Positions 806-57,754 of a DNA stretch of 64,000 nt are shown here, one piece after another. The notes under the pieces were generated by a model. That model did not search any database, was not told where the DNA came from, and saw only the letters and a program-made list of their open reading frames with translations. Source of the stretch: Pseudogymnoascus verrucosus (taxonomy: Eukaryota). The stretch lies in the NCBI GenBank assembly GCA_001662655.1, contig KV460252.1; one strand, 5' to 3'. Position numbers and translations under genes: made by a program. Each line of letters begins with the position of its first letter. Within the stretch, counting starts at the first letter, position 1.

Positions 806-2318
806 TCAAGCGAAATTTGTGATATTCGGTATAGACCCAGCCAGATTTATGGCTGTATCAGAGTCTGGGTGGACGAAGAATGCAATGGCAATAGTAACAT
901 AGCTGAGAACGAAATCATTATTAGGCTAGCCAAGGAAAGAAGAGGGTGGCGAGGTACTTACGTGCCGATCAAAAGCACACCTTCAAAGTAATTGGTCTGT
1001 CCGTCACGAACCAGGCAGTTCACTATGAGGACTGACATGGTGAGAGCAATGGTTTCGAAGGTGTCGAACTGCAATGTCATGTCTTTCCCAATGATCCAAC
1101 CTACTATCACCAAGAACGGGGTAACGAACAGTGATATCTGTAACGTACTCCCCACAATGACGGAAACTGCAAGGTTTATCTTACCAGTCCTGGACCATTT
1201 AACCGTGGCGACGTAGCATCCCGCATTCCCAACGATGGGCACGATGATGAGACCGATAAAGCTGCGACTGACACCTAACGCCTCGACGAAGCCGTCGACA
1301 CTGTCGATGAGATAATCGGAGCAGACCGCCACACCGACAGTCGCAAGAATAAGAACCGTGCTGCTAGACCAGGTGCTCAACTTGTCGCTTTGCTCGTCCT
1401 CTTCCTCTTCAGTGAAGAGATGACTGTGGGTATAAGACTGGAAGAATAAATACAGCAGGTAAAATATGAGGAGGATTATGGATGTGGTGCGGGATAAGTT
1501 CAAGATATAATCGTTTGGATTATGGTTGGAGTCATTAGACCCGGGATTGGCGATATAGAGAGCGGACGGAATGATGAGAGAGGAGCACGAAATGATCATC
1601 AACGACGTGAGAATGCCGGCAATGTCAATGTTGATGTCAACCGTTTGCTTTCCCACTCCGACACAAAAAAAAGATGTACCAAGAATCTAGAGACAGGTGT
1701 CAGCGCGGATTGGGAGTGACCAAAGCAGTGGAGGGAAGCCTTACAAGCAAGATGGATGATAGAATACTGCCGATCATACTCGACTGCACAATGCTTATTT
1801 CCCCCTCCTTGAGAGCACTTATGCCAACCTGAAGAGACAAAGTCAGCGACGAAGGAGTCATGGGTTTCTGGTGAAGGAGTCTGCGTAGGGGCAAGAAAGC
1901 ATACTATCATTTCCACGGCATTGCCAAACGTGGCATTGATCAATCCACCAATGACCGAGCCAAACTCGGCTGCCAGTTGCTCAGTCGAGAAGGTCAATAT
2001 GGAGGCGAGCGGGAACATGGCCAGGAAGTTGAGAGTAAACACGGCGGCGGGGCTCCAGCCGTGTTCAGCGGCATATATACCGAGAGGTACGCAGACGAGA
2101 AGGACATTTGAATAGCTGTACCGGATCGTAGCACTCAGCGCGTGCCATGCCTCACGAGAAACGCGCAAGGACACATGTTGTCGATTTCCCCCCGAAACTG
2201 GCTGCCACTGGCTGGTCTGGTCTTGATCTTGAGCGTGCCGCTGTCCATTGAGCAGAGGCATCGTGTCGGTCGGGGGCGACGGCGATTGCGCTTGGATGGG
2301 CGACGCGGGATTAGCCAT
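806..2318 (-). CDS. Ca2+/H+ exchanger, CAX/Vcx1 family (paralog A)
   Basis: Inferred exons 2318-1905, 1828-1745, 1686-962 and 902-806, with GT-AG introns in frame. Alpha-1 repeat GGLINATFGNAVE, GSILS, acidic loop TEEEEDE, alpha-2 region PIVGNAGC, GSTLQISLFVTP. Confidence 0.92.
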
Positions 2319-3315
2319 GGCACAAAATTGCAGTGATCAAGAGGTCTCAAAGCCCTTGGGAAGCAGTGCTGAGCAATTGCGATAGTTCACAACGCAGGAG
2401 GAGATCTGAGGTTGTTGTAAGGTTGATGTCAAAATGTCAAAAGCATAACTGCAAGGTAAAGCTAACGTCCTCAGCCTCGGGGGGGAGGGGGTCTTGCTGC
2501 CCCGCCGTTCTTCACCTAGCCTAGTGCCTTATGGAGGTACTGTGCCGGCAGGCACTCGTGCTGTGCTGTACTCCGTAGTCCTACTTTGTACTGCTCTACT
2601 ATCACCCCCTGTATGATTGTAACGACCTGGAAAAGTATTGCTAAAGCTTGGCAGGATCGCTCACTAGAACTGGACGTCATTCTGCCTAACTTGGGTGCGG
2701 TGGAGTAGTAAAAACAGTAGATCGTTACAATCATATAGGGAGGGAGGATAGGATTAGTAGTTGGTCCCGACGTGGCCTACTACAAAGGTCCCTGTCTTGA
2801 ATCCTAAGCAGTATTTAGGCTTGAAATAGCCCATAAATAAAATTCGGCCTAACAGAAGCAATCTATCCAATAGAATAGCGATGCAACGATCATCTCCACC
2901 TGTAAATGAAAACAATGACACTAACGGCTGGTACCGTTTAAAAAAAGTGGCACAAGCCGTTTCATACGGGGCTACGCGTACGTATACGGTAGAAGTCCCT
3001 ATACTACAGTCACTGCTAGAAAGAATAGCCAAGCGTAGGGTTATGAATGTCGGTCAATTATTGTGTAATATCTGAAGCTGACGGGAATCGGCACCTGTTG
3101 GCTGAATACTACATCGCTAGCGTGCTTGCGTTGTTACTCTACATGTACAGTTCAGTGTTCAGTACGTAATTACAGTACAGCTCGCGAAGTGAAGCGTTCT
3201 CAAGGACACAAATGCGAAGAGCCTCTATAGCCGCCACTACTACACATCCAACGTCAACATCGCATACAAACTTCCTATGACGAGGTAATACTGTCTGTGC
3301 AATAGCAGCTTTGCC

Positions 3316-4909
3316 ATGAACCCCGAGTCGTTGGCGACAACCCGACGCCGTAGCCACGCTCGTTCTTCAAGCCCAACAATGGACCCCGTTAATGGGGCTG
3401 AGGCTCCCATATCTCGCCCTGGCCCTCGCTCTTCTTCCAACTTGGAGCCGCAGGGTGGGTTGCTGCGCAGAATCAACTCCCTTCCGGTCGCTAGGATATC
3501 AAGGACCGCAACGGCGTCGCTATTTACGCGTACCGAGACCTGGGGCGATGCAGGTCCTTCGCTCAACCATAGTTATGGGCCGGCCAAGGGGCTTCTCGTC
3601 TTTGTCCCCATTGGTATCGCTGCTGGAGTCTGTGGCCTACCTGATGTGGCTATCCTCATCCTCAACTACCTGGCGTTGGCGTCCTTGGCTCCCTTCATCA
3701 CCTTCACCGTCCTGGGGCTCTCTAATGGCGTGGGAGTCTCGAGTGGCCTCCTAAGGGCTATCTTTGGAAATGCCACTGAACTAATTGTAAGTATGGCCTT
3801 GCCTCCTAGTCCACGCTCTACCTCGATGGCCATCTAACATGAAATTTCTCGACAAGATCAGCATTACTGCTATGTGCTATGGCCAGTTCCAGCTTGCCCA
3901 GGGGACATTGATAGGGAGTACCATATTATACTCCCTTTTTGTAAGGCCCATTCCTTCGTTCTGCCTTGCCCGCTCTAACTTTAGGAAACGCTAGGTCTTA
4001 GGTGGCAGTTTCTTGTGCGCCAGCTACGGCAAAGATCATCAAATGTTTAGCAAGACTCGAACGGGGGCCATGTCAGCTCTTGTCATGGTCGTGTCCATTT
4101 GCCTCACCATCCCGACCATCATGTCTATATCGAACAAGGAAAGCGTACCACAGGAGGGCCGTCAACGCAACATGCTAATACTATCTCACGGTACTTCCGT
4201 TGTCCTCTTCTTCCTCTCCATTTCGTACCTCGCATTCCGCTTCCAGACTCACCATAAACTGTTTAACCGCGACCATGGGCCCACGCGTTCATTGACCGTG
4301 CTTCTCATGCAGCCAGAGCACGTTACCACGAGCCCTCTCATCCTGGCTTTCGGCTTCCTAGGCGCCATGGTCTGCGCTGGGATCTGCACCAACTATGTGA
4401 TCCGCAACATTGACCTTACGGTTAAGATGTTGCACATAACTAAATCTTTCGCTGGCCTGGTTCTTCTGCCGCTGGCGGGTAACCTTGCGAAGTCCTTCAA
4501 CATCATTAGGAATGCGAGACAAGAGGGAAATATTTCGCCCAAAACGGCGAACAACTTGGACTGCGCTATACGATTAATCATGACAAATATCCTGGATACC
4601 CTGCTGTTTATCATGCCTCTCTTGGTTCTGTTAGGTTGGATCATTGACAAGCCTATGACGATGCAGTTTGGCCTTTTTGAGACCGTCGTCTTCCTCCAGT
4701 CCATAGTCATCATGACATACTTGGTACAACATGGCAAGACTACTTATTTCGAGGGTTTTATGCTCATTGGAACGTAAGCATATTTTAGATTTTTCTACCA
4801 GCTAAGACGCCCTTTTCATTAACATGTAACCCCTAGATATGTCTCTATCGCTGCCGCTTTCTATGTCCGCCCTGACGTAGCTGAAGGCGGCACCAACTCA
4901 TGGAAATGA
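3316..4909 (+). CDS. Divergent CAX/Vcx1-family exchanger (paralog B)
   Basis: Inferred exons 3316-3786, 3857-3940, 3995-4773 and 4837-4909. Motifs GLLRAIFGNATE, LPLAGNLAK and TYFEGFMLIGTY. Its three intron positions match paralogs A and C. The start could instead be ATG 3379. Confidence 0.88.
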
Positions 4910-4941
4910 TGGGTATAAATAAAAGTAAGGGAAGACAAAAG

Positions 4942-6405
4942 TCAATTATATGGCTCAATAAAAATAGCCAGCGCGATAACCGTGTACCTAAGATAATAAA
5001 GTTAGCAAATGGCATGCAGATTTTATCTTCAAAACCACATGAATGACTGCCTTACATTGACAAGAGCATGATGCCATGGAAATATGTGTACTTTCCATCC
5101 TGCAGCACCTGGTTCACGCTCAAGACAGCCAGGAGGAGGATGTAGGTCTGTGACGTCTCGAAGTAAAGGTCCATGGCGCGGCCCATGTACCAGCCGATGA
5201 CCACGAGAAAGGGGAGGACAAAGAGGGCAATCTGTAGAATGCTCCCTATAATGACCCCAATGGCGAAGTTGATCTTCCGCTGCTTTGAGGCCGCAACCAC
5301 CTGCGACAGCTCAGGGGCATTGCTAGCCAAGGGGATGAGAAATATAGCGATAAACGTCTTAGTGATATGCAAGGATTTGGCAGTCTCGTCGAGGCTCGTA
5401 ATAAAATATTGCGTGCACTTTGTAATCAATGCCGCCGAGATGATTAAGATGGCGACGGCTGAGTAGACCTCAGACACCGACGGCGTATCGTCTTCCTCCT
5501 GGCTTTTAATAGCTTCTCTGGTAGCCTCGTCAATCTGCTGTTGCTGGGGGTCCTCAATGCCATCTCCATGTGCCTCATGATGGACGTCGTCCTTTTCGTC
5601 GAGAAAAACAGACGGGTGAGTCCAGAGCTGGAAGTACAAGAAGATGACATAGATGAGCAGTAGCACAACGGCTGTTGCCCGCGAGAAGGACAGGATCTTG
5701 TCATTAATATCCTCGCCCCCCTTGGGGAGGGTCGAGTACAGTATTGTAGGCAGAATGAGCGCCACGGCGGCGACGAGCATCAGCGACGACAATGCGTCGA
5801 CTATAGCGGCGTTGACAGAGAGGATGCTGGTGCCGTGGGCTGCGGCAATGAAACAGCAACCTTGAACCTGCAAGAATAGAATTAGAGGGTGAAACTTGGC
5901 TGCGGCCAGATTGGAAGCGACTGACGAGGAGAATGTCTGAGAGGATGCTACCCAACATGGTCGACTGTGCAAGCCTTATTTCGTTCTGGTTAATGGCCAG
6001 GATGCCTACCTGCAATCCGAATTAGCAACTCTTAGGTGGCGTTTAGTTTAGGTAATAGCTAACAATTAACTCGACGGTATTGCCGAAGGTGGCATTGACT
6101 AGGCCGCCGAGCAGCGAGCCCCATCGATTCGCCAGAGTGTCTGAAGCATCTGAGATGAGAGCAGACAACGGTATGATGGCGAGGAAGTTGAACACCGATA
6201 CCAGTACCGCGTTCCAACCAAGGAATCCGGCAATAAAGCCCAGTGGCGCGAAGCCCAGAAGCACTTTGATTACGATGGGTTGCTCAGCGACCTGCCGCCC
6301 GGCATCGACAAGCAGCCGCCGCCATCCCAGCTCAACATCCTCTCGATGAGCACGACCGCCGCCTAGCTCGGCGGAGTCGTTGAGGAAGGGATCGGATTCC
6401 GACAT
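4942..6405 (-). CDS. Ca2+/H+ exchanger, CAX/Vcx1 family (paralog C)
   Basis: Inferred exons 6405-6064, 6009-5926, 5867-5056 and 4987-4942. Motifs GGLVNATFGNTVE, GSILSDILLV, PLASNAPE and GSILQIALFVLP, plus a long acidic His-containing loop. Confidence 0.92.
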
Positions 6406-7442
6406 GGTTCGATCCGTGTCGTAATTGATTAGAGGGAAGAAGAAATCAGTCTCTAAAAAAAAGTTCGTGTCGGTGGTGACACTATCTGAGTTGCTAGCAA
6501 GCTGTATCTGGCTGGAGTTGCAAGATCGATCACAAGGCTGAGACGGGTTGAGCCGCAACAACACCTCTAAACTTTAGTCAAATGCCATTTAGAAGCTAGG
6601 GAGCTGGAGCTGTCAAACGCGCCGGGGGACTGCTTATTGGAGAGTTCTGTCCCCTGGTTTGTGCCGCCAAAGCTACCTAAGAATAGTGCAGTGAATATTA
6701 ATGACATTTACCACTCCACCCGCCAAGTTAAGGACGCGTAATCCTAGGAGCTAAGCCAGTCAGAATAGTGGGGAGTACAGTATCCTAATGTAAATCTTGA
6801 ACGACGGGTCATTTCCACTGGACGGTACGGTACATGACACTTGCCGAGGACGAGGGGTTTTTCGTACAGCGCACAGTACAACGAAGAATCCTTCGTCCTT
6901 AGCTTTAGGGGAAAGGTGTTGCTTGTTCACAATTGGCTGAACATGAGGACGACGGGGGGATTTTCATTCCTACGGGTACTTACTTCAGAGACTGACTTCT
7001 TACCGGGTAGCTCCTCCTTACCTCACGGAAATATCCCTACGCTAATGCACGTGCTATGAACGGGGTAGGTAACCCCTACCTTAGTGAATACGGAGTAAGA
7101 TTATGGACGGATTTGTTTTGTATGGTCCATGGGAATGGATTCGTGAAGTTGCGAGACTTGGCTGAGGGAAAAAAAGGCGAAAAGGCTGAAATATAACTAC
7201 GAACAATTGGCCGACGAACAATACCTACCGATGAGCTGCTTCTCCGTATTCTAATTCTTAGCCTTCTGTCGTCCTTAGCATATTATCATAGCTGTTTGGC
7301 CTGGGCTATCTTCAACAACGACGACGTAGCACCAGAACAGCAGACTCTCCTTATTGCAGTCACCTGCACCCTGCACCCTGCACCCGACATCGAGACCTTG
7401 CTATGCTTTCGCCATCCACACAGTAGCAGCGTCAAGTGTTCG

Positions 7443-10400
7443 ATGGGGATCTCACCTGGCCATGACGTCGAGTCTAGGCTGGTATCCTTTGACACTCCTC
7501 GGAGACCAAAACCACCCACGATAACAGTCACTCCAGGTGTGAGTTTGCCCACATGCGCCTCTTGTCTCACTCCACCCTGTCTCACTGCATCTTGTCTCAC
7601 CCCGTCCTGTCTCACTCCATCCTGTCTCCCTCACCAGACCATCTTACAGGCCTCTCAGGATGACCGCGATAGCTCGTCGACGACGCGTCTAGCAACGGCC
7701 TACGATGCGCCCCAACGCGTTGTCGCCGCCGATAATGCCTCGCAGCCACTTTTGGGACCTGGCACAGGGCGCGGCCGAAGTTCTTCGTCGTCCTCTTTTG
7801 CGTCGTCGCTCCGGCCTGACGCACCACCCAGGCGCATCTTTCCTAACATTCCCATCGATGCGTCAGCGTCAGGCAGTCTAGAGCCTTACCCTCGCTCGCC
7901 TTCGTTACACGATGGGTCCTCGACCACCACCATGGCTCCAGTATTCTCTGTTGGAAGATCGCGTGCATCTTCGGGGATAACTGTGATCAGACACGGAGAC
8001 AACGACAACATTCTAGCGCCTGGTCCTGGTAAAAGAGTTTCTTCTCACACCGAGGATAACCCGTTTGCGTTCGGCCCTAATGTGATCGCCGAGATGATTG
8101 CTTCAAAAAGCCTCACGGAATTTCAAGCGTTAGGTGGACTCGCAAAGCTAGCACAAGGCCTGCGGACAGATCTTTTGACTGGCTTGAGCCTAGATGAGGC
8201 ATGGCTACACGGCACTGTCCGTAGCGGGTCAGCGTCGCTAGCTACGGCGGCGAGACATCAAGAGAGTTACCAGGTTTTGCAGGCTAGGAGGGCTGTGTAT
8301 GGGACGAATCGTCTCCCAGACCAGAAGACAAAGGGCATCTTCGAGCTCATGATTTTGGCACTTAGCGACAAGGTCTTAGTTCTTCTCTCCGTTGTCGCCA
8401 TCATCTCTCTGTCCCTAGGTCTGTATCAGGCTTTCGGGCAGCCTCATAAGCCGGGCCAGCCACGTGTCGAATGGGTGGAAGGCGTTACAATCATGGTTGC
8501 TGTTATCATCGTCGTCGTCACGGGGGCCTTGAACGACTATCAGAAGGAACGACAATTTGCTCAACTTAACAAGAGGGTGAGTTATTCTCTAATCTCATGA
8601 CCACTCTCACTCCGTGACTATATTACTGGTATAACTTAGAGTACTAACATTTGGATGTAGAAAGAAGATCGCATGGTCAAAGCAATCCGATCGGGGAGGT
8701 CGGTAGAGATTTCCATATATGATGTCCTCGCAGGTGATGTGCTGCACCTAGAGCCTGGAGATCTTGTCCCAGCAGACGGTATTCTAATTTCCGGTTATAC
8801 TGTTCGATGTGATGAATCTTCCATGACTGGAGAATCCGAACAGATACAAAAAGTCGCTGGGGACGAGGCCTTGGCTAGATTACATACGTCCGGAGATGTA
8901 GACAGCTTAGATCCCTTCATCATCGCTGGGAGCAAGGTTTTGGAAGGAATTGGCACCTACATTGTCACAGGCGTCGGTATCAACAGCACACACGGGCGAC
9001 TGATGATGAGTCTGACAGAGCGTACCGACGAAACACCATTACAAAAGAAGCTGAGCATAGTGGCGGACAAAATTGCCATAAGCGGAGTGGCCGCGGCCGT
9101 TACCTTGTTCGTTGTTCTCACAGCCAAGTTCCTGAGTCAACTTTCAGGAAGCCACGACTCTCCGTTTGAACAGGTCCAGGCGTTCCTGCGAATATTCATT
9201 GTCTCGATCGCCATTGTTGTTGTAGCTGTCCCAGAAGGACTACCTCTGGCTGTCACACTAGCACTAGCAATCGCTGTGACACGAATGCTGAAAGATAACA
9301 ACCTTGTGAGGATCTTGTCGGCTTGTGAAACGATGGGAAATGCGACTACTGTGTGCTGCGACAAAACGGGGACCCTCACCACGAACAGGATGACAGTTTG
9401 TGCGGGAACTGTAGGCGTTGCGGGTCGGTTCTTGGATGAGGGGAGTCAACCAGGCGGTAGCGAATCACGACGTGGTTCTGTTCGGCCTAACTCATACAAC
9501 ACCATGGAAGGAACAGCAGGGAGTTCCGCTTGGAAAGATGGGGCTGTTCCGACGGGGACGTTTTGTTCTCTGCTTGCCTCAGATGTCCGAGATATCATGG
9601 TGAAATCCATCGCCATAAACTCCACTGCCTTTGAAGGCGAGGAAGACGGCAAGCCGGCTTATATCGGTTCGAAGACCGAGGCTGCACTCTTGACATTCGC
9701 GAGAGACTGGCTGGGAATGCAACCGCTCGATGTGGAACGCGAAAACGCCGAGGTGGTCGAAATTTACCCATTCAACTCGACCAGAAAGTGCATGGCTGTT
9801 GTGACACAGCTGCCCAATGGCTTGTATCGAATATATCTAAAAGGAGCGCCTGAAATTGTCTTGGAGAAGAGCAGTCGAGTCATTTCTAAGACAACTTCCC
9901 AGCTGAGCGAGAACGTCAATTTGACAGAAGATAGACTTGAGGTGCTAACGGGAGCCATCAATGAATATGCTTCTCAGTCGTTACGGACTCTTGGCTTCGC
10001 ATACAGGGACTTACCATCATGGCCTCCCCTAGGGGATGGGGTGGGCGAGGTGCCTTTCGACGACATATTTGCCGACATGACGTTCGTAGGCGTCCTGGGA
10101 CTCCAGGATCCACTCAGACCTGGAGTTGAGGCCGCTGTTGAACTGTGCCAGCATGCAGGAGTATTTGTAAGAATGGTGACCGGCGACAGCGTCAGAACTG
10201 CTCAGGCGGTAGCAAGAAAATGTGGCATTCTCACGGAATCTGGTGTTATTATGGAAGGCCCAGATTTCAGAAAATTGTCCGTTCCCGAGATGGATAGCAT
10301 ACTGCCGCATCTGCAGGTGCTCGCAAGATCTAGTCCAGAAGACAAAAGGATGCTTGTGAAGAGGCTGAAGGAGCTAGGAGAGACCGTAGCTGTCACAGGC

Positions 10401-11673
10401 GATGGCAGTAATGACGGCCCAGCTTTGAGAGCGGCAGATGTTGGGTTTTCGATGGGTATCTCTGGCACTGAAGTTGCCAAGGACGCATCGTCGATCATTT
10501 TGATGGATGACAACTTCTCGTCGATTGTTAAGGCAATTGAATGGGGTAGGACGGTCAACGATGTGATCAAGAAGTTCCTCCACGTTAGTTTACATATGAA
10601 AGAGTGGAGAAAATCTTGACTAACATCAATCACAGTTTCAACTTACGGTTAATGTCACCGCAGTCACGCTCACCTTCGTATCTGCGGTTGCAAGTAATAA
10701 GGAAGAATCCATACTTACCCCAGTTCAGCTGCTTTGGGTGAATCTCATTATGGACACCTTTGCCGCTCTCGCTCTCGCCACAGAGCCTGCGAACCCAACT
10801 GTTCTCGAGAGGGAGCCAGAGAGGAAAACAGCACCACTGATCTCGCCTACTGGCTGGAAAATGATCATAGGGCAAGCTATATACCAACTCATTGCCGTCA
10901 TGCTTTTATATTTTAAAGGAAACGAGATGCTCGGATATACGCAGCCGGAGGATATGGAAAGACTCCAGACACTGATCTTCAACGCTTTTGTCTGGATGCA
11001 AGTTTTTAATCTCACCAAGTAAGCTATTAAATGGGGATTTCCGAGACTCTTCCAAAGCTAACTATGCGCTAGCAACCGTCGACTCGACAACAAGCTCAAT
11101 GTATTCAGCGGCATCCTCCAGAACCCGTTCTTTATTGCAGTCAATATGGTCATCATTACAGGTCAAGTTCTCATCATATACTTTGGGGGCAGCGTGCTCG
11201 CTACGACACGGCTCTCTGCAAACGAGTGGGCCATATCTCTTCTCATAGGATTCGCGTCTCTTCCCGTTGGCATGTTACTTCGTCTCACTCCCGACGCATC
11301 ACTCCAACGAATCTTCACCTTCCGGGTGGGCACGCAGAGGTCAAGGGAGACTCGGGCATCGGAGGCTTCTGAGGGCGACCAGTGGCACCGCGCCATCGAG
11401 AATGTGCGTTTCAAGCTTGGTTCTAGAAGACAACCCCGCAGCTCGCGACTGGAACGTCTGCGACGTGGGATTTTACCCTTCGTCAAGGCAAAATTATTTG
11501 GAGTGGCCCAGGATGATGACGGAGAGGTAGACGAAATAAGCCCTTTACTTCCTTTTAATAGTAGGCAGGATCTCTCACGGACAGGTTCAATTTGTGCACC
11601 TGCTGCAGCAGTCATGGCAGGCATTGTCGCAGGGGGAGTGGCTGGTTGGCCACGTATACCAGATGAGACATGA
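7443..11673 (+). CDS. PMC1: PMC1/PMCA-type (P2B) Ca2+-transporting P-type ATPase
   Basis: Inferred exons 7443-8576, 8661-10583, 10636-11018 and 11073-11673. Motifs TGES, VPEGLPLAVTLALA, DKTGTLT, KGAPE, TGD, GDGSND and QLLWVNLIMDTFAALALATE. The start codon is uncertain, and this may be a paralog rather than the main ortholog. Confidence 0.93.
7561..7630 (+). repeat. 15-bp coding tandem repeat, (CLTxx) x5
   Basis: TGTCTC(AC/CC) units start at 7563, 7578, 7593, 7608 and 7623, encoding CLTPP CLTAS CLTPS CLTPS CLPH. Confidence 0.85.
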
Positions 11674-12205: not shown

Positions 12206-12557
12206 CAGCCTCAGAGAAAAAAAAGTGGACGCATTATCAACTATCCGGGCCCCCATATGATTGTAAAAATCTATTGTTTTTACTGCCTCACTGCAACCAA
12301 GTTAGGCAGAATAGCGTTCGATTTTAGTGGACGATCATGCTAAGCTCTTGCAAAACTTTTGCGGGTCGTTATAATCACTACAGGGGGGAATAGCATATGC
12401 TCGACTAATACAACAAACACCTTATCTAGTCACAACCCGCCGCTGGCCGAGCCCGCGTGAGGCTGTGTCGCTCGTGGCATGTCACTATGAGGGATTTTTC
12501 GGAATTTTATTTTGAACCATACTAGAATAATGTGCCATTTTATATATAACCAGCCTC
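12206..12557. promoter_or_regulatory. Three Crz1/CDRE-like GAGGCTG sites upstream of FET4
   Basis: CAGCCTC at 12206-12212, GAGGCTG at 12459-12465 and CAGCCTC at 12551-12557. The motif is short and function is unproven. Confidence 0.35.
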
Positions 12558-13076: not shown

Positions 13077-14612
13077 ATGGAGCGGTTATTGAAAGCCCTT
13101 CGCTCTCCAGGCGGTAGACGCGCAGTTGAGTGCACGGCACCGACACAAATGACAGTGCATGTCGAGGATGAAGGAGACAAGGCGGGCGAGATTTCCGTTG
13201 AAAACGACAATACCTATAATCTCACAACGAAGGCTGGACGCTTGGATCGGTGGCTCGATAAGGTCGTGGAATTCTCGGGCTCGGAGCCCATGTTTCTCAC
13301 CATCATCATCGCCCTCCTCGCCTGGGCATTCTTGGGGATTCGATTTGGACAGTTGACACAGTGGAAAGTCGCTATCTCTGACGCCCAGGCCATCCTTAAT
13401 ATGGTATTTGACGCCTTCCTCATGCGCCAGCAGCTGAATTCGTACGACTCGCTCATCGAAGTCTCAGCTTGCCTCAGATCTCGCACTACTAGCAACAAGA
13501 GAATGCTGCGGAGCCTGATCGAGAGCGGGAAATATGAGAAGGTCAATCCGATGCAATTTCACGAGCTGGAGCAGACAGAATTCGCATCAGAGCTCCCTGT
13601 GGAGAGCTTGCTAGGCCGAATATCCACTGCCTTCTCCACCTTCCTAGGCCACATCGCTACAGTGGTCGCTTTCTGGGTGTGTATCTTCATCTGGATTGGA
13701 TTTGGCCAGTACTGTGGCTGGTCCGACACATGGCAGTTATACATCAACTCGGCCACATCAGCATTGATGGTGTTAATGTTGGCATTCTTGGCAAACATTC
13801 GTGAGCGGCACAGCAAATACACTACGAAATGTCTCGAATCCATCTACGAGGTTGATGCTGCTCTTGAGCTTAGACTCCGAACCGCCTCCGGCGACACGAT
13901 TGAAAACGCGCCCGTCCACATCCCAGTTCCCGAGAGGAGCAGAATCCAACGCGCAATCGACTACTACGCGGATCTGGTTGGCACTCTTCTCGGGATCGTA
14001 ATCCTGGTCTTTGCACTGATCGTTTGGGTCGCGATTGGCCCGGCACTGTCCTTCAATTCAAACTGGTGGCTCCTCATCGGCACGTATGCCGGGCTGATAG
14101 GCATGAACGATGGGTTCGTGCTGCGCAATGTGCACAACGTGCTACATGGCTACGAAGATGCCCAGTTTGTCCAGGTGACATACGACGACATGGACATGCT
14201 TGCTGTGATTGGCGTCACGCAGCTCAATGAAGAGCGCGTCGCGGCCGACTCACTCACCTACCGAATCTCGGTCAAGATGGGTGATTTCTGCTCGCACGAA
14301 CTCACGGTCGTGTTGGGCGCCATCGTGATTCTAGGCCTGGTCATTGGCGCCAGTGCAATGGAATGGAGTGTTACTGGACAGCTGCTCTGTAATGTCCCGC
14401 CTAGTATCATCGAATCATTCTTCACGATGATCCTGATCACTGGTCACAATATCGGAGATGCTAAGAGGCGTGTCGACCTTCACAACATCTACCTGCGAAG
14501 GCTGAAAAGTATCACATATGTCAATACGCTGGCCAAGCCTGAGAAGCAGGAGAGGTTGTTACGCCCGCACGATCACACGGAACTTATGGAGGTCAAGATT
14601 GATTCGCTTTAG
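13077..14612 (+). CDS. FET4: Low-affinity Fe(II)/Zn transporter, Fet4 family
   Basis: Intronless 511-aa ORF with repeated Fet4 permease units: WKVAISDAQAI, WQLYINSATSALM, WWLLIGTYAGLIG, GQLLCNVPPSIIESFF. Confidence 0.9.
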   Translation: MERLLKALRSPGGRRAVECTAPTQMTVHVEDEGDKAGEISVENDNTYNLTTKAGRLDRWLDKVVEFSGSEPMFLTIIIALLAWAFLGIRFGQLTQWKVAISDAQAILNMVFDAFLMRQQLNSYDSLIEVSACLRSRTTSNKRMLRSLIESGKYEKVNPMQFHELEQTEFASELPVESLLGRISTAFSTFLGHIATVVAFWVCIFIWIGFGQYCGWSDTWQLYINSATSALMVLMLAFLANIRERHSKYTTKCLESIYEVDAALELRLRTASGDTIENAPVHIPVPERSRIQRAIDYYADLVGTLLGIVILVFALIVWVAIGPALSFNSNWWLLIGTYAGLIGMNDGFVLRNVHNVLHGYEDAQFVQVTYDDMDMLAVIGVTQLNEERVAADSLTYRISVKMGDFCSHELTVVLGAIVILGLVIGASAMEWSVTGQLLCNVPPSIIESFFTMILITGHNIGDAKRRVDLHNIYLRRLKSITYVNTLAKPEKQERLLRPHDHTELMEVKIDSL

Positions 14613-15243: not shown

Positions 15244-18200
15244 CTACCCAACACCACCACCCCCAGCCACACTCTCCATACCCCCCATCCCACCACCCAT
15301 CCCTATCCCCCCTCCCCCTCCCAAGCCCCCACCAATCCCCATCCCCATCCCCATCCCCATCCCCATCCCCATCCCCCCCTCCCCTCCCCCACTTCCAATC
15401 CCCAACCCCCCCAACCCCACCCCTCTCCCCCCCTTCCCAACCTTCTTAGCCCACCTCAGTCCACACCCATTACACAAATCCCTCTTCCCACTCGGCCCCC
15501 TCCTCCACTCCGGCGTCGTCTTCGCCTGACAATTCGCACAATCCCTCTCCCCCCCACCCCCCTGCCCCTTCCTCCTCTTCCTCTTCTTACGGAGAGACAA
15601 CAAGGCCGAGAGTTCAGTGGTGAGGGAGGCATTATGGCGCGTCAGGGACGTGAGTTCCGACTGCCACGACGTACACCTCGCAGGCAACAATTCCGTAATC
15701 AGCGGCGACTCCGGACGCCCAGACGCGTCCACCGCCGCAGCAGAACCATCCACTTGATTAGGCGTCCTCATCCCCGGCTTCACCAACCTCGTCAACGCAA
15801 TCAAAAACCCACACTTCCCCTTATTACCCTCCCCCGCATCTCCCGCAAACAAACTAGTAACAGCCATAACCCCCACCCCCCTCTTATTCCTAACCTCATG
15901 CCTCCACCCCCTCCCCCTCCCCACCAGGCACTCCTCAAACCCCACCCTCTGGTCCCCAGGCAAGAGGGCTTGGAAACTCGTCCCTACCAGCGAAGAGGGT
16001 GAGCGATCGAGAAGCGTGCGCACGGAGGTGGAGATGTAGAGGATTAACCCGGAGGTGGAGAGTTTACTCCAGATGTCGGAGTCGGTTAGGGTGCCTGAGG
16101 CGGAGATGGTGGTGTGTGAGAGGGTGTAGACGGGGCGTTCGCGGCTTGTTAGGAGGAGCGTTTTCGAGGAACTGCTGGGGTTGGGAGGGGAGGGGCGGAG
16201 GCGGCCGTGGGTTTCAAACCAGATGTAACCGCGGGTTGCGTGGCGGATGCGGAAGATGGTTGTTATCCCCCCCCCGCTGGTTGTGGCATCCTTAAGATCC
16301 CGCATCACGGACACGATATCGCTAGGATGGCAAACAGACGATAGAGCCGTCCCTACCAGCTCCTCAGGCGCATACCCGAGGATCCGCTGGCTGGAGGGGG
16401 AGAGGTAGAGGAAGTGCCCTGTGGGGGAGAGGATTTGTATCACATCGGGGCTAATCTCCAACAGAAGCGCGTCCCGGAGACCAGTGCCGTCGTAGTTCAG
16501 CCCCGCTTGGTAGGAGGTTAATATCGTCGAAACTTCCCCCGGGCTAAGCGTTACGCTGGTGTCGAGATGCGATGGGGTGGGAAGAGGAGCGCGGGGCGTG
16601 TAGCGAGGGAGGTGGTGCTGGGAATAATTGACCGAATAGGTCCCCGTTGTGCTTTTTGAGATGATGGCGGAGGGGTTGTCAACGAGGTCGATTTGGAATC
16701 CGACGTAGTATTTCACCTCCTCCGTGTCCCAGGTTATCGGCACCATAGTGAGGAGGTTCGTGAACGGCTGCCCCCCTTTCCGATAATTAATCAAACTGCA
16801 CTGTACCTCCTTTCTCTTTAACACCCCCCGTTTTAAGGCGTACACAGCAGCATCATCGACGTATTTCCTCTTCTCCCCCTTTTTGGACTTCCCGTCGGGA
16901 GACTGAAGGAATCGACAGTTCTTCATCCACACCTCGTTCTTGTTGTAGCCGGTCAGCCGCGAGAAGATTTCCGAGGCGTAGATTACGGGGTTATCGGGCA
17001 TGGTGGCGTCGCAGACCACGAAGGCGCAGGACATGTCGACGGAGCCGAGGTCGGTCTCGGGGTTGGTTCGGGAGGTGACTTTCATTAGTATGCCTTCTAT
17101 ATTGAAGCCGCTGCTGGAATTATGGTTCGTAAATGTGGTGTTTGTAGAGGAGCTCACTGGTCCGTTGAACGCCTCTGCGGTCGTCGTTAGAAGTAGAGGG
17201 GAGTATGTCTCCATATTAGGCATTTCGGGTGGTATTGATGAAATCGTAGGAATCGTAGGAATAGAAGTCGTTGTGTATAATGCTGGGCTTTGGGTCATGC
17301 CGGTGCTAAATTCGACATGGCTGTTGCGTCTTGATATATGGCTATTACGCCGGGACGTATTGTGGGATTCGACAAGAGTTATTTCGCTGCGTGAGCTGTG
17401 GCCCAATACTACACTCGATGTTCCACTGTTGACCTGTGATGCTGCGCTGAGTGCGAAGTCCGACGAAATAGTGTCCATAGACGGGCCTGAGAACGGCTGT
17501 GTGAAGCTATTCGGGTTGAAGATGATCGCTGGCTGGGTGTCTTGCATTTCGGGAAATGACATCATATCGCCCATCATATTCGTTGGCATTATTTGAGGAG
17601 CGATGGCCTGATAGGCAGTAGGAGACTCGATGGCGACGGAGGTTTGGGCCATAAGTGAGAAATTTGTCGGGTTTCCGGCCATATCCATATTCGTTCCCAT
17701 GTCCCCGTATACTCTCGACACATCTAGCTCCTGTACTGAAGGCCTCCTGCTGTGGACACTGATATCTACGTATCCATTTGACACATCTAGTTCTTGAACT
17801 GAAGGCCTCCTGCTGTGGACACTGATATCTCCGTATCCTCCTGGCACTTCGAGTTCATGTACTGAAGGTCTCCTGCTCTGGACACCAATGTCTCCATACC
17901 CTCTTGGCACTTCGAGTTCATGTACTGAAGGTCTCCTGCTCTGGACACCAATGTCTCCATACCCTCTTGGCACCTCCAGCCCTTGCATCGAAGGCCTCCT
18001 GCTTTGTGCAAGAAGATTTGCGTTTGGCGCAGTAGTAGTAAACTGGAAGTTATTGAGAGCCGCCTGACCCGAGCCGAACTCCATCATAGATCCTCTCCGG
18101 TTCTGAATAGGCGTATATATATCGTCCATATCACCTCCAAACTGCTGCATAGGCAAGCTCTGTCGCCGCAGAAGCTCCTTGCTATTCTGCCGCACAATAT

Positions 18201-18438
18201 CATCAAGCGTATCCCCTCCCCCCATCATATCCGGCATATTCGTCATATCCATAGCCTCGTTTTCGGATACCGGGCCCAGCATGGCCATCCCCATGGCCTG
18301 GCTTCCAATATCATTTCGTGGGTATCGCCGTTGAGCAGGCGGCGGCTGCTGTTGCTGTTGCTGTTGCTGCTGATGTTGCTGCTGATGTTGCTGCGACCGA
18401 TCCTCGCGAGTATATTGCGGCCCGAAGAATTCTTGCAT
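15244..18438 (-). CDS. wc-1: White collar-1-like blue-light receptor and GATA transcription factor (LOV-PAS-PAS-ZnF)
   Basis: PolyQ N-terminus, LOV motif NCRFLQ and NYRKGGQPF, two further PAS domains, a basic NLS (RKKRKRRK) and a C-X2-C-X18-C-X2-C finger (CANC..TTPEWRRGPSG..CNGC). Confidence 0.9.
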   Translation of the reverse strand: MQEFFGPQYTREDRSQQHQQQHQQQQQQQQQPPPAQRRYPRNDIGSQAMGMAMLGPVSENEAMDMTNMPDMMGGGDTLDDIVRQNSKELLRRQSLPMQQFGGDMDDIYTPIQNRRGSMMEFGSGQAALNNFQFTTTAPNANLLAQSRRPSMQGLEVPRGYGDIGVQSRRPSVHELEVPRGYGDIGVQSRRPSVHELEVPGGYGDISVHSRRPSVQELDVSNGYVDISVHSRRPSVQELDVSRVYGDMGTNMDMAGNPTNFSLMAQTSVAIESPTAYQAIAPQIMPTNMMGDMMSFPEMQDTQPAIIFNPNSFTQPFSGPSMDTISSDFALSAASQVNSGTSSVVLGHSSRSEITLVESHNTSRRNSHISRRNSHVEFSTGMTQSPALYTTTSIPTIPTISSIPPEMPNMETYSPLLLTTTAEAFNGPVSSSTNTTFTNHNSSSGFNIEGILMKVTSRTNPETDLGSVDMSCAFVVCDATMPDNPVIYASEIFSRLTGYNKNEVWMKNCRFLQSPDGKSKKGEKRKYVDDAAVYALKRGVLKRKEVQCSLINYRKGGQPFTNLLTMVPITWDTEEVKYYVGFQIDLVDNPSAIISKSTTGTYSVNYSQHHLPRYTPRAPLPTPSHLDTSVTLSPGEVSTILTSYQAGLNYDGTGLRDALLLEISPDVIQILSPTGHFLYLSPSSQRILGYAPEELVGTALSSVCHPSDIVSVMRDLKDATTSGGGITTIFRIRHATRGYIWFETHGRLRPSPPNPSSSSKTLLLTSRERPVYTLSHTTISASGTLTDSDIWSKLSTSGLILYISTSVRTLLDRSPSSLVGTSFQALLPGDQRVGFEECLVGRGRGWRHEVRNKRGVGVMAVTSLFAGDAGEGNKGKCGFLIALTRLVKPGMRTPNQVDGSAAAVDASGRPESPLITELLPARCTSWQSELTSLTRHNASLTTELSALLSLRKKRKRRKGQGGGGERDCANCQAKTTPEWRRGPSGKRDLCNGCGLRWAKKVGKGGRGVGLGGLGIGSGGGEGGMGMGMGMGMGMGIGGGLGGGGGIGMGGGMGGMESVAGGGGVG
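17700..18003 (-). repeat. 63-bp coding tandem repeat (about 5 copies) inside wc-1
   Basis: SRRPSVHELEVPRGYGDIGVQ-like 21-aa units with nearly identical DNA. Confidence 0.9.
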
Positions 18439-45791: not shown

Positions 45792-48700
45792 ATGGTGAGT
45801 TCTCCCACTTTTCACTTTCCACTTTCCACTCCACATTTCCCTGGACCAGTACTGGGCCAGAGACCAGAGACCTTAGAGAGCACCAGCTAACTTCTTCTCC
45901 CACAGGGCACAACTACGCCCCTCGACCAGATCAAGCGCTTCGAGGTCACCGAAGTCTATGCCCACCCCGAAGCCACTGTCGACATCGTCCTCGTCCACGG
46001 CCTCAACGGCCACCCACAGAACACATGGACCGCAAAGAACGGCGTCTTCTGGCCCAGCCAGCTGCTGCCTCTGACATTACGGCAGGCCAAGGCGAGGGTC
46101 CTAGTCTATGGCTACAACGCAGACGTATATACTTTTGGCAGCGATAAGGGCGCAAGCTCTGATATGATACACCAGCATGCACAGAGCTTGCTGACGGGAC
46201 TGAGCATGGAGAGAATGAGCGAGGAGAAGGAGGAGAATGCGATCATCTGGGTCGCGCATAGCTTAGGTGGGATACTGGTAAAGAGGGTGAGTGTCCCCGG
46301 AGGCTCGCAGGAGGCGTGCTTAAGACAGTGACTAAAGCTAACGTATCTAGGCACTGGAACTCTCAAACGACCTCACGAGTAAGAGCGCCGACCCAAGCCG
46401 CTCCATCTACGTCTCCACCTACGGCATTATCTTCCTAGGCACGCCGCACCTAGGCGCTGACGGCGCAAAATGGGGACAGGTCCTGCACTCACTCGTGCGG
46501 ACCGTCATGCCCAAGAAGATCGTCGAGACGGAGGACCAGCTGCTCAAGACGCTGCAGAACAACAACGAGACCCTTCAGAACATCAACCTGCACTTCCTCG
46601 ACATCTACCAGCGCTTCGAGATCGACATGGTGCACGAGGCTATGAGAACCGATCTCAAGGGCACTAAGATCTTCGTCGTCGACCAGGCCTCTGCCTCCCC
46701 GCCGTTACCAGGCGTCCGATACTACGGCATCGAGGGCACGCACTCGTCCATGTGCAAGTTCGAGAGCAAGAACGCCCCAGGCTATCTGAATGTCAGCACG
46801 GCGATCAAGGGGTGGGCGAATGACTGCACGCCGAAGATCCAGGCGAGGTGGGCTGCGGAGAGGAAGGCAAGGAGGCAGGCCAAGGAGAATGAGGCTAAGG
46901 AGCTACTGGGCATCTTCGTAACGGATAAGGATGATACTGTGAGTTAGCCTTAGACGAGCCGTAGCGAAATATACATTCTGACTTTTGAATAGTTGAGTGC
47001 CCCAGTGGCACAGCCGCGGCCACAGGAGGCGTCGGGAACTTCAAACAGTACGTCGGCACCTACTTCCCACCAAGCACCGGCGACGAGCCAGCCGCGGGCT
47101 GCACTCGAGGCAGCGTCGCGCCAGGCTGCGTCGCCGTTCCAGTACCAGTACACAACGGAGGAGGTTGAGGAGAGAGAAGCGGAACTGGTGGAGCGTTGAT
47201 TCTGTCGTTCTGCGAGTTTTCTCTTTTTGATTTTCGTCGGGGTTGTGTTTTTTTCTTACACTCTATATCATGTCACTCTACTCTACTTCTTCTATCCTTA
47301 TAAAAATGAACAGGGCTGATTTCTCTCGTGCCTATGTAGACTCGTCGCTCGCCGTATCAAACGCAAATATCGCCCAGCCTGCTGCCAGACCCGCTGATCC
47401 CGCTACTACTGCAGCCCCTACCGCGTACTTCATCAAGCCCCAGGGGTTTCGTCCTAACTCCCTTTTTGTCGGCCGCGAAGAGGAACTCGAGAAAATGCAT
47501 CGCATGCTTTTCGACCGCAAGCGCCGCGCCGAGGGCGTCGCTGCTGTTCTCATCCAGTGCATCCCTGGCGGTGGAAAGACTCATCTTGCGCGCGAATATG
47601 TCTACAAGCACCTCCAGGACTTCCCCGGCGGCGTCTTCTGGGTCACTGCCAAGTCGCCTGAGCAACTGGAGGCTGGCTTCTGGCATATCGCTGCTACCGT
47701 CGCGTTACCGCCCGCGAATGGCAGCGTGGCGGCGAAGCAGACGGAGGATTTCGTCAGATGCGTTATTGACTGGTTCACGACCCACCACGACTGGCTGCTT
47801 GTCCTTGATGGAATCCACTTCGACCACAACGAGACTCTCAGTCGGTTTATCCCCGATAGCACGAATAGCAGCCTTCTCTACACATCCACCGAGCACAGTG
47901 TCGGTGGCGACCACCACTTCATGAACCCGGAGGTTATCAGAGTACCTCTGCTATCAGCGCGCGAAGCGCAGGAACTTTTCCTTCAGGAACTGGGCCGAAA
48001 GAACCCGACAACAGACGACCTTGCCGAGGCGATGAAGCTGGTGCAGCGAATGGGATTTCTGCCAGAGGTAATTCATGTGGCGGCGAAGAGGCTGAAATCG
48101 ACGCAGGAACCGTTGGCCAAGTTTGCGAGAGCCTATGCGTCAGGGCCGAAGTTGAGGGCACTGGACACTTATGTAGCTGTTGTGGAGCAGCTGCGGAACT
48201 CAGGGGCGGATGAGGCATTAAATCTGATCAGTATACTGGCATTCTTCAGCAGTAGTATCCCAGTGGAGATGATTTCGTTAGGTAAGTTCCCACTCTCTCT
48301 GTGTCTATCAAGCTGAACTAACATCCACAGGCCTCAAATCAGTCGACATCCCCGTCAAAACCTACGAAATGGCCACCGGGCGCTCCCTAAACAACACCTT
48401 CAAAATCCTCAACAGCTACGCCCTAATCAGCCGCTCCGAACACGACCTCAGCCCCCACGCCTCCACCTCCTCCAAGTCCTCCTCCCACCTCCTCGCCGAC
48501 GACCTCGACATAATCCGCATCCACTCCGTCGTCCAAGACTTCTTCATCGACTCCCTCCGCGCCGCCGGCACCCGCGCCGTCTGGCTCTCCCGCGCAATGG
48601 TCCTATTCACCAAATCCTACGACCAGGCTTCCCAGCGCATCCAAGCAAAGACCAATGCGGGTCTCGTCGGCGACTTCCGCTCCTACGAGATACACGCCCG

Positions 48701-50507
48701 CTGTCTCCTAGCCCATCTCGCGCGCTTAGAGCGTAAGGGACCACAGCTCCCCGCTATCCGCGAGCCGCTTGAAGCGTCGCTCCGAGACATCATGGCGGAG
48801 ATTGTGCGGCGGACTCGCGAGTCGTCGCTGGATATCGCTAAAGGCGGCAGCGATGAAGCGTTTATGTTGTCGATTTTCGATCGCACTAGCTCCTCGTCTG
48901 ATACTGGTCCGGAGACGCCCGGTCCTGCAGACTCATATCCGCCAGGTGCTCATCTCTGGGGTATAGAGGTTTCGCAACTGGAAAGCCCAGTTAGCGTGAA
49001 TGATTTCCCACTGAAGTTCCCTGCCATGCCGGAGGTTGATGATGGGTATGACTCAGACTGGTCATCCAACGCCTCCGCCTCCGTCATAATGCGCGGCTCC
49101 CACTACTCCATCGGCCCCGGCATCGCTACTCCCACTAACCCCACAAACACAAACACCATCACCTCCCCGACGCTCCAACTCGACTCCCCCACACCCACAA
49201 AAGAAGAATGGACCGTCGTCCCCCCCCGCCACCCCCGCACCACCCTCCCCCGCGCAGACCTCCACCGCACCACCCGCGCCCTCGAAGCATCCCGCTACCA
49301 CGACACCACAGGCGCCTTCCGCGCCGCCGCCGACCCCCGCGTCTCCCTCTCCCACGAGACCGCCATGGGCGTCCTCGAGCGGCGCGGCCGGGGCGGTAAC
49401 CGCGGCGAGGGGGTAATGGGCATACCCATCCCCGGCGCGAAGGGGAATCTGCCTAGTGGGCTCAGCGCGGCGGAGGTGGCGTTGGGGGAGATTAGTAAGA
49501 GTTCCCCGCCGCCGAGTAGGGGAGGGGGACATATTCAGGATAGGGGGAGGAGAACGAGTAGTCAGAGGAGACCGAGTGAGATGCTGGGGGGGAAGAGTGC
49601 GGGGTGGCAGGGTGAGGCGGTCGCGGGGGATACGATTTTTGAAGCTGTTGGGAGTCCACTTTCGACTTCGACGTCCGGGTCAGGCACTGGATCGGGACAG
49701 AAGAGATCGAGGAGTAAACCCTCCCCGCGCCCGAGGCCAGCTACCCCGGCCGTGACGGCGCTAAGGGGTATCCCCTACGAACCCCGCCGTCCCACATCTT
49801 CCTCTTCCTCCTCCTCCGCCACCACAGGCGCCCCACCCCGACGAGAAGAAAACAACCTCTCCCCCCGCCCGCCAATACGCATGTACACCCAACCCTACCC
49901 CATCTCCACACCTGACTTCTCCGCCCCCCTCCCCCCCGCCAAATACCCCCGCCAAACAGGGCCTTTACCAATCGAATACGCACCCGCCCTCTCCACCGCC
50001 CCCGTCCTCAAAACCCCCGACGTCCGTCCACACGTCGCTAGCACCGTCAGCGCACCAACGCCGTACTTGTATCCCCACGCCCCAGCCCCCGCGATGGGCG
50101 GATCTCAACAAGGCGGCTCGGGATCGAGCTCAGGACAAGGACAGGGACGTGCGTATTTTCCCCTCCTCCCCACGAACCCGCAACGACCCCGCCGCGTGGG
50201 CGGATACAGTTCTCAACCTATGTCGCGCAACGTCTCAGGCTACAGTTCCGCGCCTATGAGTCGCGATGCCTCAGCGGGGTTGTCAGCGCAGTCGGGGAGC
50301 GGGAGTGGAGGGTCGAGAAGCGGTGGGTCTAGGAGGAGTGGGGGAAGTGATGGGGGGATGCCGATGGGGATGGCGAGGGGGAGGGGGGAGATGAGGAGAA
50401 GACCGAGTTTGGCGGAGACGGAACCGCCGCCTGAGTTGCCGAGGTTTAGTCCTGAGACGAGGGAGGGGGTTGATATGGGGTTTGGGGGGATGGGGAGGTT
50501 TAATTGA
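45792..50507 (+). CDS. Alpha/beta-hydrolase (SesB/PGAP1-like lipase) fused to NB-ARC, with a disordered C-terminus (NLR-like)
   Basis: Inferred exons 45792-45794, 45906-46286, 46351-46938, 46993-47047, 47340-48281 and 48331-50507 (about 1381 aa). Motifs DIVLVHGLNG, AHSLGG, FLGTPH, FVGREEEL, P-loop PGGGKT and Walker B WLLVLDG. Confidence 0.85.
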
Positions 50508-54797: not shown

Positions 54798-55035
54798 TGT
54801 AAAGGATCTACAATAAACAGGGCAGTATGAAGTCACGTTCTTAGTTATACGCGTATAGTATAGATCCTATACACTACGAAGACTAAACGCTGTCCCTCCT
54901 CTAGAGGTCTACGTTCCTACTATATACTCTACGCTAGGGCTTTAGAAGGAAGTTCCTTGTTACAGCCCTTAGGGAAACTATAGACCGTGTAGGGTTCCGG
55001 TATTAGTACAGGGGTTGTAGAAACCTGCCGTAACA
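54798..55035. mobile_element. Possible RIPed solo LTR
   Basis: TGT...ACA ends enclosing about 240 bp of TpA-rich sequence. No matching TSD was found. Confidence 0.3.
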
Positions 55036-57725: not shown

Positions 57726-57754
57726 AAAAGACTTTAACCCCCAGTATTCATCTT

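Follow-up and report, generated by a model that had tools for sequence, protein, structure and literature searches.

Among Ca2+/cation antiporters, which make up the CaCA superfamily, the two carboxylates of the alpha-repeats are treated as defining and essential. The canonical fungal member is Vcx1 of Saccharomyces cerevisiae (PDB 4K1C), a vacuolar Ca2+/H+ exchanger with the alpha-2 motif GNAAEH, the residues Asn133, Ser325 and Gln328, and an acidic helix. Here we describe three CAX genes, named A, B and C, which lie within positions 806-6405 of a 64,000-nt stretch of contig KV460252.1 of Pseudogymnoascus verrucosus. The whole stretch is called the window, and all coordinates are 1-based positions in it. 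The alpha-2 glutamate is replaced by a cysteine in A and by a lysine in B, and is present in C. The region is a conserved fungal calcium-transport cluster and not a group of decaying paralogs. We consider it probable that in this intact cluster C is the Ca2+-competent member, whereas A and B are non-canonical and B is tied to C.

The mutant benchmark for the ion site comes from YfkE of Bacillus subtilis (PDB 4KJR/4KJS), which has the same fold and site layout. The exchange of its alpha-2 glutamate (E255Q) abolished both Ca2+ binding and transport, whereas the alpha-1 glutamate (E72) was required for transport and not for binding. The site is lined by N99, Q281 and H256, and the mutations Q281A and H256A altered the Km for the co-transported phosphate (PMC10227063). 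YfkE is bacterial, forms a homotrimer and has both glutamates, and a natural Lys or Cys variant is not described in the accessible parts of that account (PMC10227063). By offset, N99, Q281 and H256 correspond to Asn133, Gln328 and His303 of VCX1, and these are positions that are changed in A, B and C. The chain numbering of 4k1c, which is the native numbering plus 5, was used throughout; the alpha-2 positions are then Glu302 and His303.

Arabidopsis CAX1 and CAX3 are both ordinary CAX proteins, and yeast Vnx1 is a CaCA member that does not carry Ca2+. For two CAX paralogs in a mixed complex with different properties, the CAX1/CAX3 pair is a precedent (PMC4982074). Its genes are not reported there as a conserved neighbouring pair, and it has no charge-reversed site. 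In AtCCX3 and AtMHX the CaCA fold is kept, the alpha-repeat residues are changed and Ca2+ is not carried (PMC3355786). AtCCX3, AtMHX and Vnx1 belong to other families (CCX, MHX and type 2 CAX). We know of no member of these families with a lysine at the alpha-2 carboxylate. Several Vcx1 homologs per filamentous fungus are on record, for example five in Beauveria bassiana and four in Magnaporthe oryzae (PMC6997533), and fungal CAX proteins have been divided into groups 1D-1F (Shigaki et al. 2006, via PMC3355786). Beauveria proteins were among our C-type matches. A difference at the residue level, a Lys clade or a gene cluster is not mentioned in the accessible parts of these accounts (PMC6997533, PMC3355786). 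In our literature search, which did not extend to the subscription papers (Shigaki 2006; Hu 2014; the VCX1 structure), neither a CAX clade with Lys or Cys at alpha-2 nor a CAX-pump cluster was seen to be described. The existence of several fungal CAX paralogs was known, and the Lys and Cys alpha-2 clades and the cluster appear to be new.

The three genes were read with introns. Their models, and the positions of the motifs and site residues, are as follows.

806-2318, minus strand: gene A, A-type CAX, 439 aa; exons 2318-1905, 1828-1745, 1686-962 and 902-806
1911-1925, minus strand: alpha-1 motif GNAVE of A, Glu retained (gene model)
1216-1230, minus strand: alpha-2 motif GNAGC of A; the Cys codon TGC at 1216-1218 corresponds to VCX1 Glu302 and is followed by Tyr in place of His303
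3316-4909, plus strand: gene B, B-type (Lys-type) CAX-like, 468 aa; exons 3316-3786, 3857-3940, 3995-4773 and 4837-4909
3766-3780, plus strand: alpha-1 motif GNATE of B, Glu retained (gene model)
4478-4492, plus strand: alpha-2 motif GNLAK of B; the Lys codon AAG at 4490-4492 corresponds to VCX1 Glu302 and is followed by Ser in place of His303
4595-4597, plus strand: Asp of B in transmembrane helix (TM) 8, within TNILD, at the position of VCX1 Gln328 and YfkE Gln281
4942-6405, minus strand: gene C, C-type CAX, 427 aa; exons 6405-6064, 6009-5926, 5867-5056 and 4987-4942
6070-6084, minus strand: alpha-1 motif GNTVE of C, Glu retained (gene model)
5935-5937, minus strand: Asp of C in TM3, within GSILSD, at the position of VCX1 Asn133 and YfkE Asn99; an extra carboxylate beside the ion site
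5310-5324, minus strand: alpha-2 motif SNAPE of C, Glu retained, Gly changed to Ser, followed by Leu where VCX1 has His

The original prediction, made for the span 1195-5330, which runs from the alpha-2 motif of A to that of C, held that alpha-1 is intact in all three genes, that alpha-2 reads GNAGC, GNLAK and SNAPE, that B has no acidic central loop and that all three frames are intact. Each of these points was borne out. The motifs of both alpha-repeats were located in the gene models, and the cysteine of A was aligned to the glutamate of VCX1 with HMMER. Exon 3 of A had yeast VCX1 (4k1c) as its best sequence match (E 1.1e-52), with GNAGCY standing column for column against GNAAEH. The acidic loop after the TH..LF motif has 7 Asp or Glu in 10 residues in A and 15 in 42 in C, and only 2 in 20 in B. 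Once the introns are removed, the reading frames are open throughout. The nine introns, three per gene, have 54-76 nt, run from GT to AG and occupy the same three positions in each gene. The model of C is 100% identical to an annotated protein of 427 aa from Pseudogymnoascus sp. VKM F-103 (P0121). The best homolog of A is a Pseudogymnoascus protein with 97% identity, and B has a Pseudogymnoascus ortholog, P0384, with 98% identity.

Transcription was followed in run X13, which contains contigs of a close relative and is presumed to be RNA, the type of the run being a guess. Its contigs skip exactly the positions 903-961, which are intron 3 of A, and 3787-3856, which are intron 1 of B, and therefore spliced A and B transcripts exist in this relative. 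Another contig covers 6152-6427, i.e. exon 1 of C.

The features of the CAX family are present in the three proteins to different degrees. Two stretches matching the Na_Ca_ex domain (PF01699) were found in each of P0001, an ortholog of A (137 bits), P0384, the ortholog of B (76 bits), and the C protein P0121 (135 bits). The two repeats are shared with Vcx1, as is the alpha-1 GNxxE motif with its glutamate (VCX1 E106). The exon-3 translations from the window also matched this domain, B exon 3 with 43.6 bits. In the NCBIfam equivalog TIGR00378 ('cax', cut-off 211.15 bits) the A ortholog (342.3 bits) and the C protein (275.6 bits) were above the cut-off, whereas the B ortholog with 191.1 bits was below. 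The cytosolic acidic helix or loop between TM5 and TM6 is present in A and C and absent from B and the Lys clade. For B, the CAX fold, with the MR helix and ten TM, was recognised in a model of P0384 (pLDDT 77.7, pTM 0.77). Its best structural match was VCX1 4k1c (target TM-score 0.88, E 4e-22), and AtCAX1 and YfkE were also among the top matches. Compared with Vcx1, A has Cys-Tyr in place of Glu-His. B combines alpha-2 Lys-Ser with Tyr at 133, Asn at 325 and Asp at 328 and has lost the acidic loop. C has SNAPE-Leu and Asp at 133.

The relationship of the three genes was investigated with searches of their third exons. Exon 3 of A gave 849 matches at E <= 1e-10; the best 60 comprised 5 with GN[AL]GC, 38 with GNAGE[F/Y/M] and 17 with GNAAEH. 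With exon 3 of C, 197 matches were obtained, and S-N-x-x-E occurred in 119 of the best 120, reading SNAPE in 93 of these. An exhaustive HMMER search with exon 3 of B yielded 2093 matches at E <= 0.001, of which the best 59 had 28 Lys, 24 Glu and 7 other residues in the alpha-2 Glu column. A FastTree tree was built from 127 rows, taken from a set of 203 (200 proteins of 360-500 aa and A, B and C) by dropping the rows gapped at either Glu column and keeping every fourth canonical row. It resolved a C-type clade of 42 rows (support 100), a B-type clade of 21 rows with 20 Lys and 1 Arg (99), the canonical GNAAEH clade of 29 rows (100) and an A-type clade with GNAGE[F/Y] of 35 rows (99). The cysteine proteins formed a group of 6 rows nested in the A-type clade (support 100). 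The same four clades were recovered, without a known root, by IQ-TREE with a site-mixture model from 54 hand-picked rows, at 98, 100, 99 and 100, and the Cys clade again at 100.

A, B and C are therefore members of three ancient, separate Pezizomycotina CAX clades, and each of them falls outside the canonical clade of Vcx1 (support 98-100). A recent tandem duplication was rejected, since the three genes stand in three deep clades in both trees. With regard to the original description as paralogs, they are not recent paralogs of one another. The states of A and B were reached by unrelated routes and at very different times.

In the trees, A, B and C of Pseudogymnoascus each group with Hypocreales (Tolypocladium, Hirsutella, Metarhizium, Trichoderma), and the other Leotiomycetes (Cudoniella, Acephala, Venustampulla) do not group with them. 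The A protein has 76% identity to a protein of Tolypocladium paradoxum. This grouping suggests either a horizontal transfer of the whole cluster or a differential loss of old paralogs. An independent second change from Glu to Lys was seen inside the canonical clade, where the His is retained (GNVAKH and GNATKH; P0289 and P0306). It occurs in a 7-member cluster from the Colletotrichum acutatum group and also in Fusarium proliferatum.

In the B-type proteins the lysine was invariant in 30 of 30 aligned exon-3 sequences, at least 90% of which had Asp where VCX1 has Gln328. In the 16 full-length sequences, the Asn and Glu of alpha-1 were invariant throughout. A larger alignment of 183 rows contained 73 with Lys or Arg at alpha-2, and among these the alpha-1 Glu was kept in 24 of the 26 rows that include the N-terminal half. 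Among 71 Lys rows, the TM8 residue at the Gln328 position was Asp 45 times, Gln 12 times, Arg 8 times and Asn 3 times; among 88 Glu rows it was Gln 85 times and Asp not once. The Asn133 position of the Lys/Arg rows was mostly Tyr, and the His303 position mostly Ser or Ala. The median net charge of the loop was +0.5 in 20 Lys-type rows, versus -6 to -12 in the other clades.

The B clade, with Lys and rarely Arg, spans four classes: Eurotiomycetes (Aspergillus felis, A. wentii, A. tanneri, Penicillium nalgiovense, Talaromyces), Sordariomycetes (Trichoderma, Metarhizium, Ustilaginoidea, Chaetomium, Gaeumannomyces), Leotiomycetes (Venustampulla, Pseudogymnoascus) and Dothideomycetes (Glonium). In a B-type cluster of Aspergillus section Flavi, with A. 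oryzae RIB40 among its 43 members, the alpha-2 and the TM8 position are both Arg.

The A-type clade as a whole lacks the His and has Glu-Phe or Glu-Tyr in place of Glu-His. The cysteine is a younger change that was fixed in a small subclade, to which it is restricted, with Pseudogymnoascus, Tolypocladium paradoxum, Purpureocillium, Hirsutella and Metarhizium robertsii. To reach TGC from a Glu codon, three base changes are required. When gene A was compared with the relative X3, 14 synonymous and 2 non-synonymous differences were counted (pN/pS about 0.045), and its introns had 11 differences in 193 bases. These counts indicate that A is under strong purifying selection.

The C-type proteins retain both glutamates, Ser325 and Gln328, and have an extra Asp at the Asn133 position that is invariant in 29 of 29 sequences. 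With SNAPE, the missing His and the additional Asp, C is not canonical either.

The substitutions in A and B had been proposed to reflect functional specialisation and not damage, and this view is supported by the Lys in 30 of 30 sequences and the B clade support of 98-99, by the Cys clade support of 100 and by the 14 versus 2 differences in A. Homologs that keep the Glu, together with relaxed selection, had been named as the outcome that would contradict it. This is not what is found for B, where the Lys is common to the clade. For A, the wider clade does keep the Glu, but selection on the gene is strong.

We then looked at the arrangement of the genes, for which the following features are needed.

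2319-3315, no strand: A-B intergenic region, 997 bp between divergent starts (gene models)
4910-4941, no strand: stop-to-stop gap between B and C, 32 bp, convergent genes (gene models)
7296-11673, plus strand: PMCA/Pmc1-type P-type Ca2+-ATPase, divergent from C; limits approximate, exon structure unresolved (Pfam)

The layout consists of two divergent pairs, A with B and C with the pump, and B and C stand tail to tail. The pump was recognised in the open reading frames (ORFs) 7296-8600, 8673-10619 and 11146-11673, with the Pfam domains Cation_ATPase_N, E1-E2_ATPase, Cation_ATPase, Hydrolase and Cation_ATPase_C. The A-B intergenic region probably holds a shared promoter. The 3' ends of the B and C transcripts must overlap or abut, because only 32 bp separate the two stop codons.

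The conservation of this layout was examined in 13 metagenome loci that encode B-type relatives. In L005 the genes A (minus, GNAGEY), B (plus, GNIGK), C (minus, SNAPE) and the pump (plus) have the same order and strands as in the window, and a second pump follows downstream of A. L008 is the mirror image of the window order. In L009 a pump is followed by a B-like gene, C, another pump and A. A C-type gene was found at most 3.5 kb from the 3' end of B in 8 of the 9 loci that could be examined there, and in 7 of them the two were tail to tail (L001, L003, L005, L006, L007, L008 and L009). In annotated genomes, the locus tags of B and C are adjacent in four cases (Ustilaginoidea virens, Chaetomium olivicolor, Cordyceps sp. 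RAO-2017 and Venustampulla echinocandica), and those of A and B in one, Gaeumannomyces avenae. The tags of A and C are two apart in Cudoniella and Rasamsonia. As a proxy for a common contig, 20 of 42 B-type matches lie on contigs equal in size to that of a C-type match. In addition, a complete A-type CAX and the pump are joined in seven protein clusters from Aspergillus. The tail-to-tail pair of B and C is thus the conserved core of the cluster, and it fits the idea in the original prediction that B works with C.

The joined proteins (P0014, P0015, P0017, P0018, P0019, P0022 and P0028; Aspergillus sections Flavi and Nigri; 1396-1496 aa) contain the CAX part including its last helix and then the N-terminus of the PMCA pump, with a linker that varies by species. 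They are probably merged neighbouring genes and not true fusions, because a CAX protein with 11 helices is expected to end on the non-cytosolic side. The B-like gene that stands next to C and between two pumps in L009 (7550-8900) and in L010 (583-1933) showed no recognisable G-N-x-x-K in its alpha-2 region in a pattern scan, and may be a further-diverged or degenerate member.

What do A, B and C then do? From the residues and the gene order we infer that canonical Ca2+/H+ exchange is lost in A and B, that the Lys of B is paired with a Glu and that B and C are functionally tied. A and B are probably not ordinary Ca2+/H+ exchangers, because YfkE without its alpha-2 Glu loses Ca2+ binding. C, with both site glutamates and the TM3 Asp, would be the member able to exchange Ca2+ or a similar divalent ion for H+. 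In the B-type proteins, with Lys or Arg at alpha-2, Asp in TM8 in the subclade of B itself, Tyr in TM3 and the His and the acidic loop gone, the buried lysine would most likely act as a tethered positive charge that pairs with the alpha-1 Glu still present. With this pairing the usual cycle of 1 Ca2+ for 2 H+ should not be possible. The full CAX fold and the strict conservation of the core residues suggest that B is no mere scaffold and may still move or sense a small ion, for instance H+ or one that is monovalent. The role of B would be tied to that of C, since B constantly adjoins C. For A, which belongs to the Cys subclade (Pseudogymnoascus and some Hypocreales) of the Glu-Phe/Tyr clade, canonical Ca2+ binding would be excluded, and softer metal ions are perhaps favoured.

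Several points weigh against this interpretation. The TM8 residue differs within the B clade, as the counts in the 71 Lys rows show, and because it is not uniform a single mechanism for all members is doubtful. In the subclade of B the TM8 Asp could restore a Ca2+ site. The covariation of Lys and Asp is largely the history of one clade, with few independent events, and many of the B-type and C-type rows are partial metagenome gene calls. With regard to the gene order, L004 has C 3.3 kb from B on the same strand, and in L012 no C-type gene was present in the 3.6 kb downstream of B. The gap of 32 bp may alone be enough to make a separation of the two genes difficult. The estimate of selection compares gene A with one relative, over the differences listed up to position 3459 (40 of 362).

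Another explanation, to which we give considerable weight without expecting it to be correct, is that A and B are independent transporters with new substrates. B would then carry monovalent cations in exchange for H+ or be linked to anions, A would carry softer metals (Zn2+, Cd2+) by means of its Glu and Cys, and the genes would be clustered only by their co-regulation with the pump under ion stress. The strict conservation of the core polar residues of the ion pathway in the B-type proteins is in accordance with this, and so are the two Arg residues of the section Flavi proteins and the Fet4-like metal permease that adjoins the pump. Other CaCA members such as AtCCX3 and AtMHX are without Ca2+ transport (PMC3355786), and the phosphate of YfkE binds near His256 and Gln281, whose positions are changed in A and B (PMC10227063). 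However, independent substrates do not explain why the B/C pair in particular is the conserved core, and the variability in TM8 speaks against one common new substrate.

Somewhat more doubtful is a hetero-oligomer, the partner idea of the original prediction, in which B, and perhaps A, would be a non-catalytic or modulatory protomer that joins the Ca2+-competent C in a mixed dimer or trimer and tunes its activity, targeting or regulation. CAX crystals contain dimers (VCX1, AfCAX) or trimers (YfkE), and plant CAX heteromers reportedly have altered properties (PMC4982074). Both features of B that relate to Ca2+, namely its alpha-2 Glu and its acidic loop, are lost and the fold is retained, and the tail-to-tail adjacency of B with C is kept across fungal classes. 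On the other hand, there would be no need for an invariant Asn and Glu in alpha-1 and an invariant buried Lys in a subunit with a purely structural role. As convergent genes without a common promoter, B and C have no built-in equal co-expression; the upstream region of B is common with A and that of C with the pump.

It is improbable that the Ca2+ site of B is compensated, i.e. that in its subclade the TM8 Asp replaces the alpha-2 Glu and the Lys gates the site or tunes its pKa, so that B would still exchange Ca2+ for H+, at a changed stoichiometry or with a changed pH dependence. The Gln328 position does line the site in YfkE (Q281; PMC10227063), and Asp occurs there with Lys in 45 rows, with an alpha-2 Asn in 3 and with Glu in 0 of 88. 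Against this, the acidic loop is lost throughout the clade, deeper B-type members have Gln, Arg or Asn and not Asp, and the B ortholog scores below the 'cax' equivalog cut-off (191 versus 211 bits). The view that A and B are redundant copies drifting after duplication, for which one could cite that each lacks a residue essential in canonical CAX and that none of the three is as divergent as B (43.6 bits, Pfam), was rejected as very improbable, as it is contradicted by the intact frames and conserved intron positions, the spliced transcripts in the relative, the Lys invariant across four fungal classes, the 14 synonymous versus 2 non-synonymous differences in A and the confidently predicted fold of the B ortholog.

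Returning to the preferred reading, with C as the Ca2+-competent member and B as its companion, a wider proposal can tentatively be made. The B-type proteins might be a Pezizomycotina-wide class with a charge-reversed site that does not carry Ca2+ but another ion, either H+ or a monovalent cation or, in the forms with Arg/Arg, an anion such as phosphate, and they might be an obligate linked companion of the C-type proteins. Together with the Pmc1-type pump they might form a self-contained and possibly horizontally mobile calcium-handling module.

In the surroundings of the cluster, a low-affinity iron permease gene (PF04120, Fet4-like, E 1.3e-34) lies directly downstream of the Ca2+-ATPase at 13077-14612 on the plus strand. 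It is followed at 15244-18438 on the minus strand by a long ORF in which PAS_9, PAS_3 and a GATA zinc finger were matched. These are the domains of a light-sensing transcription factor like White Collar-1. Between A and B, at about 2599-2740, there is an element of some 143 bp that resembles a miniature inverted-repeat transposable element (MITE) and has terminal inverted repeats of its own. An inverted copy with 80% identity lies past the pump at 12251-12393, so that B, C and the pump stand between the two. In the relatives X3 and X8 the contig depth of the MITE-like stretch is about 3 times that of the sequence around it, and loose ends are numerous there, from which it is concluded that the element is multi-copy.

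As a weak lead, three matches to a Crz1/CDRE-like motif, at 6549, 7554 and 7706, fall within or close to the region from which C and the pump diverge. The pattern used was GNGGCKCA, which we take to be the Crz1/CDRE-like motif of yeast. Over the whole window it gave 11 matches versus 19 expected and hence no enrichment. Farther away, an ORF at 47243-48316 on the plus strand has NB-ARC and AAA_16 domains and resembles a fungal NLR-type gene. An ORF of 712 aa without Pfam matches comes after it. The region 50001-60000 has a G+C content of 0.37-0.47, compared with 0.49-0.61 elsewhere, and almost no long ORFs; it may be repeat-rich or affected by repeat-induced point mutation.

Taken together, our results point to A and B as an unstudied kind of ion transporter and not as broken genes. 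Tethered-Lys sites are known from other transporter families, and the charge swap in B is comparable to them. A large and old fungal clade has exchanged a carboxylate for a positive charge under selection, which provides a natural experiment on ion choice and stoichiometry. That the pump is associated with three exchangers suggests that filamentous fungi have an unrecognised module for the handling of calcium or metals, which occurs in the Aspergillus flavus/oryzae group, Metarhizium, Trichoderma and Pseudogymnoascus. In such fungi, calcium and calcineurin signalling govern stress tolerance and virulence.

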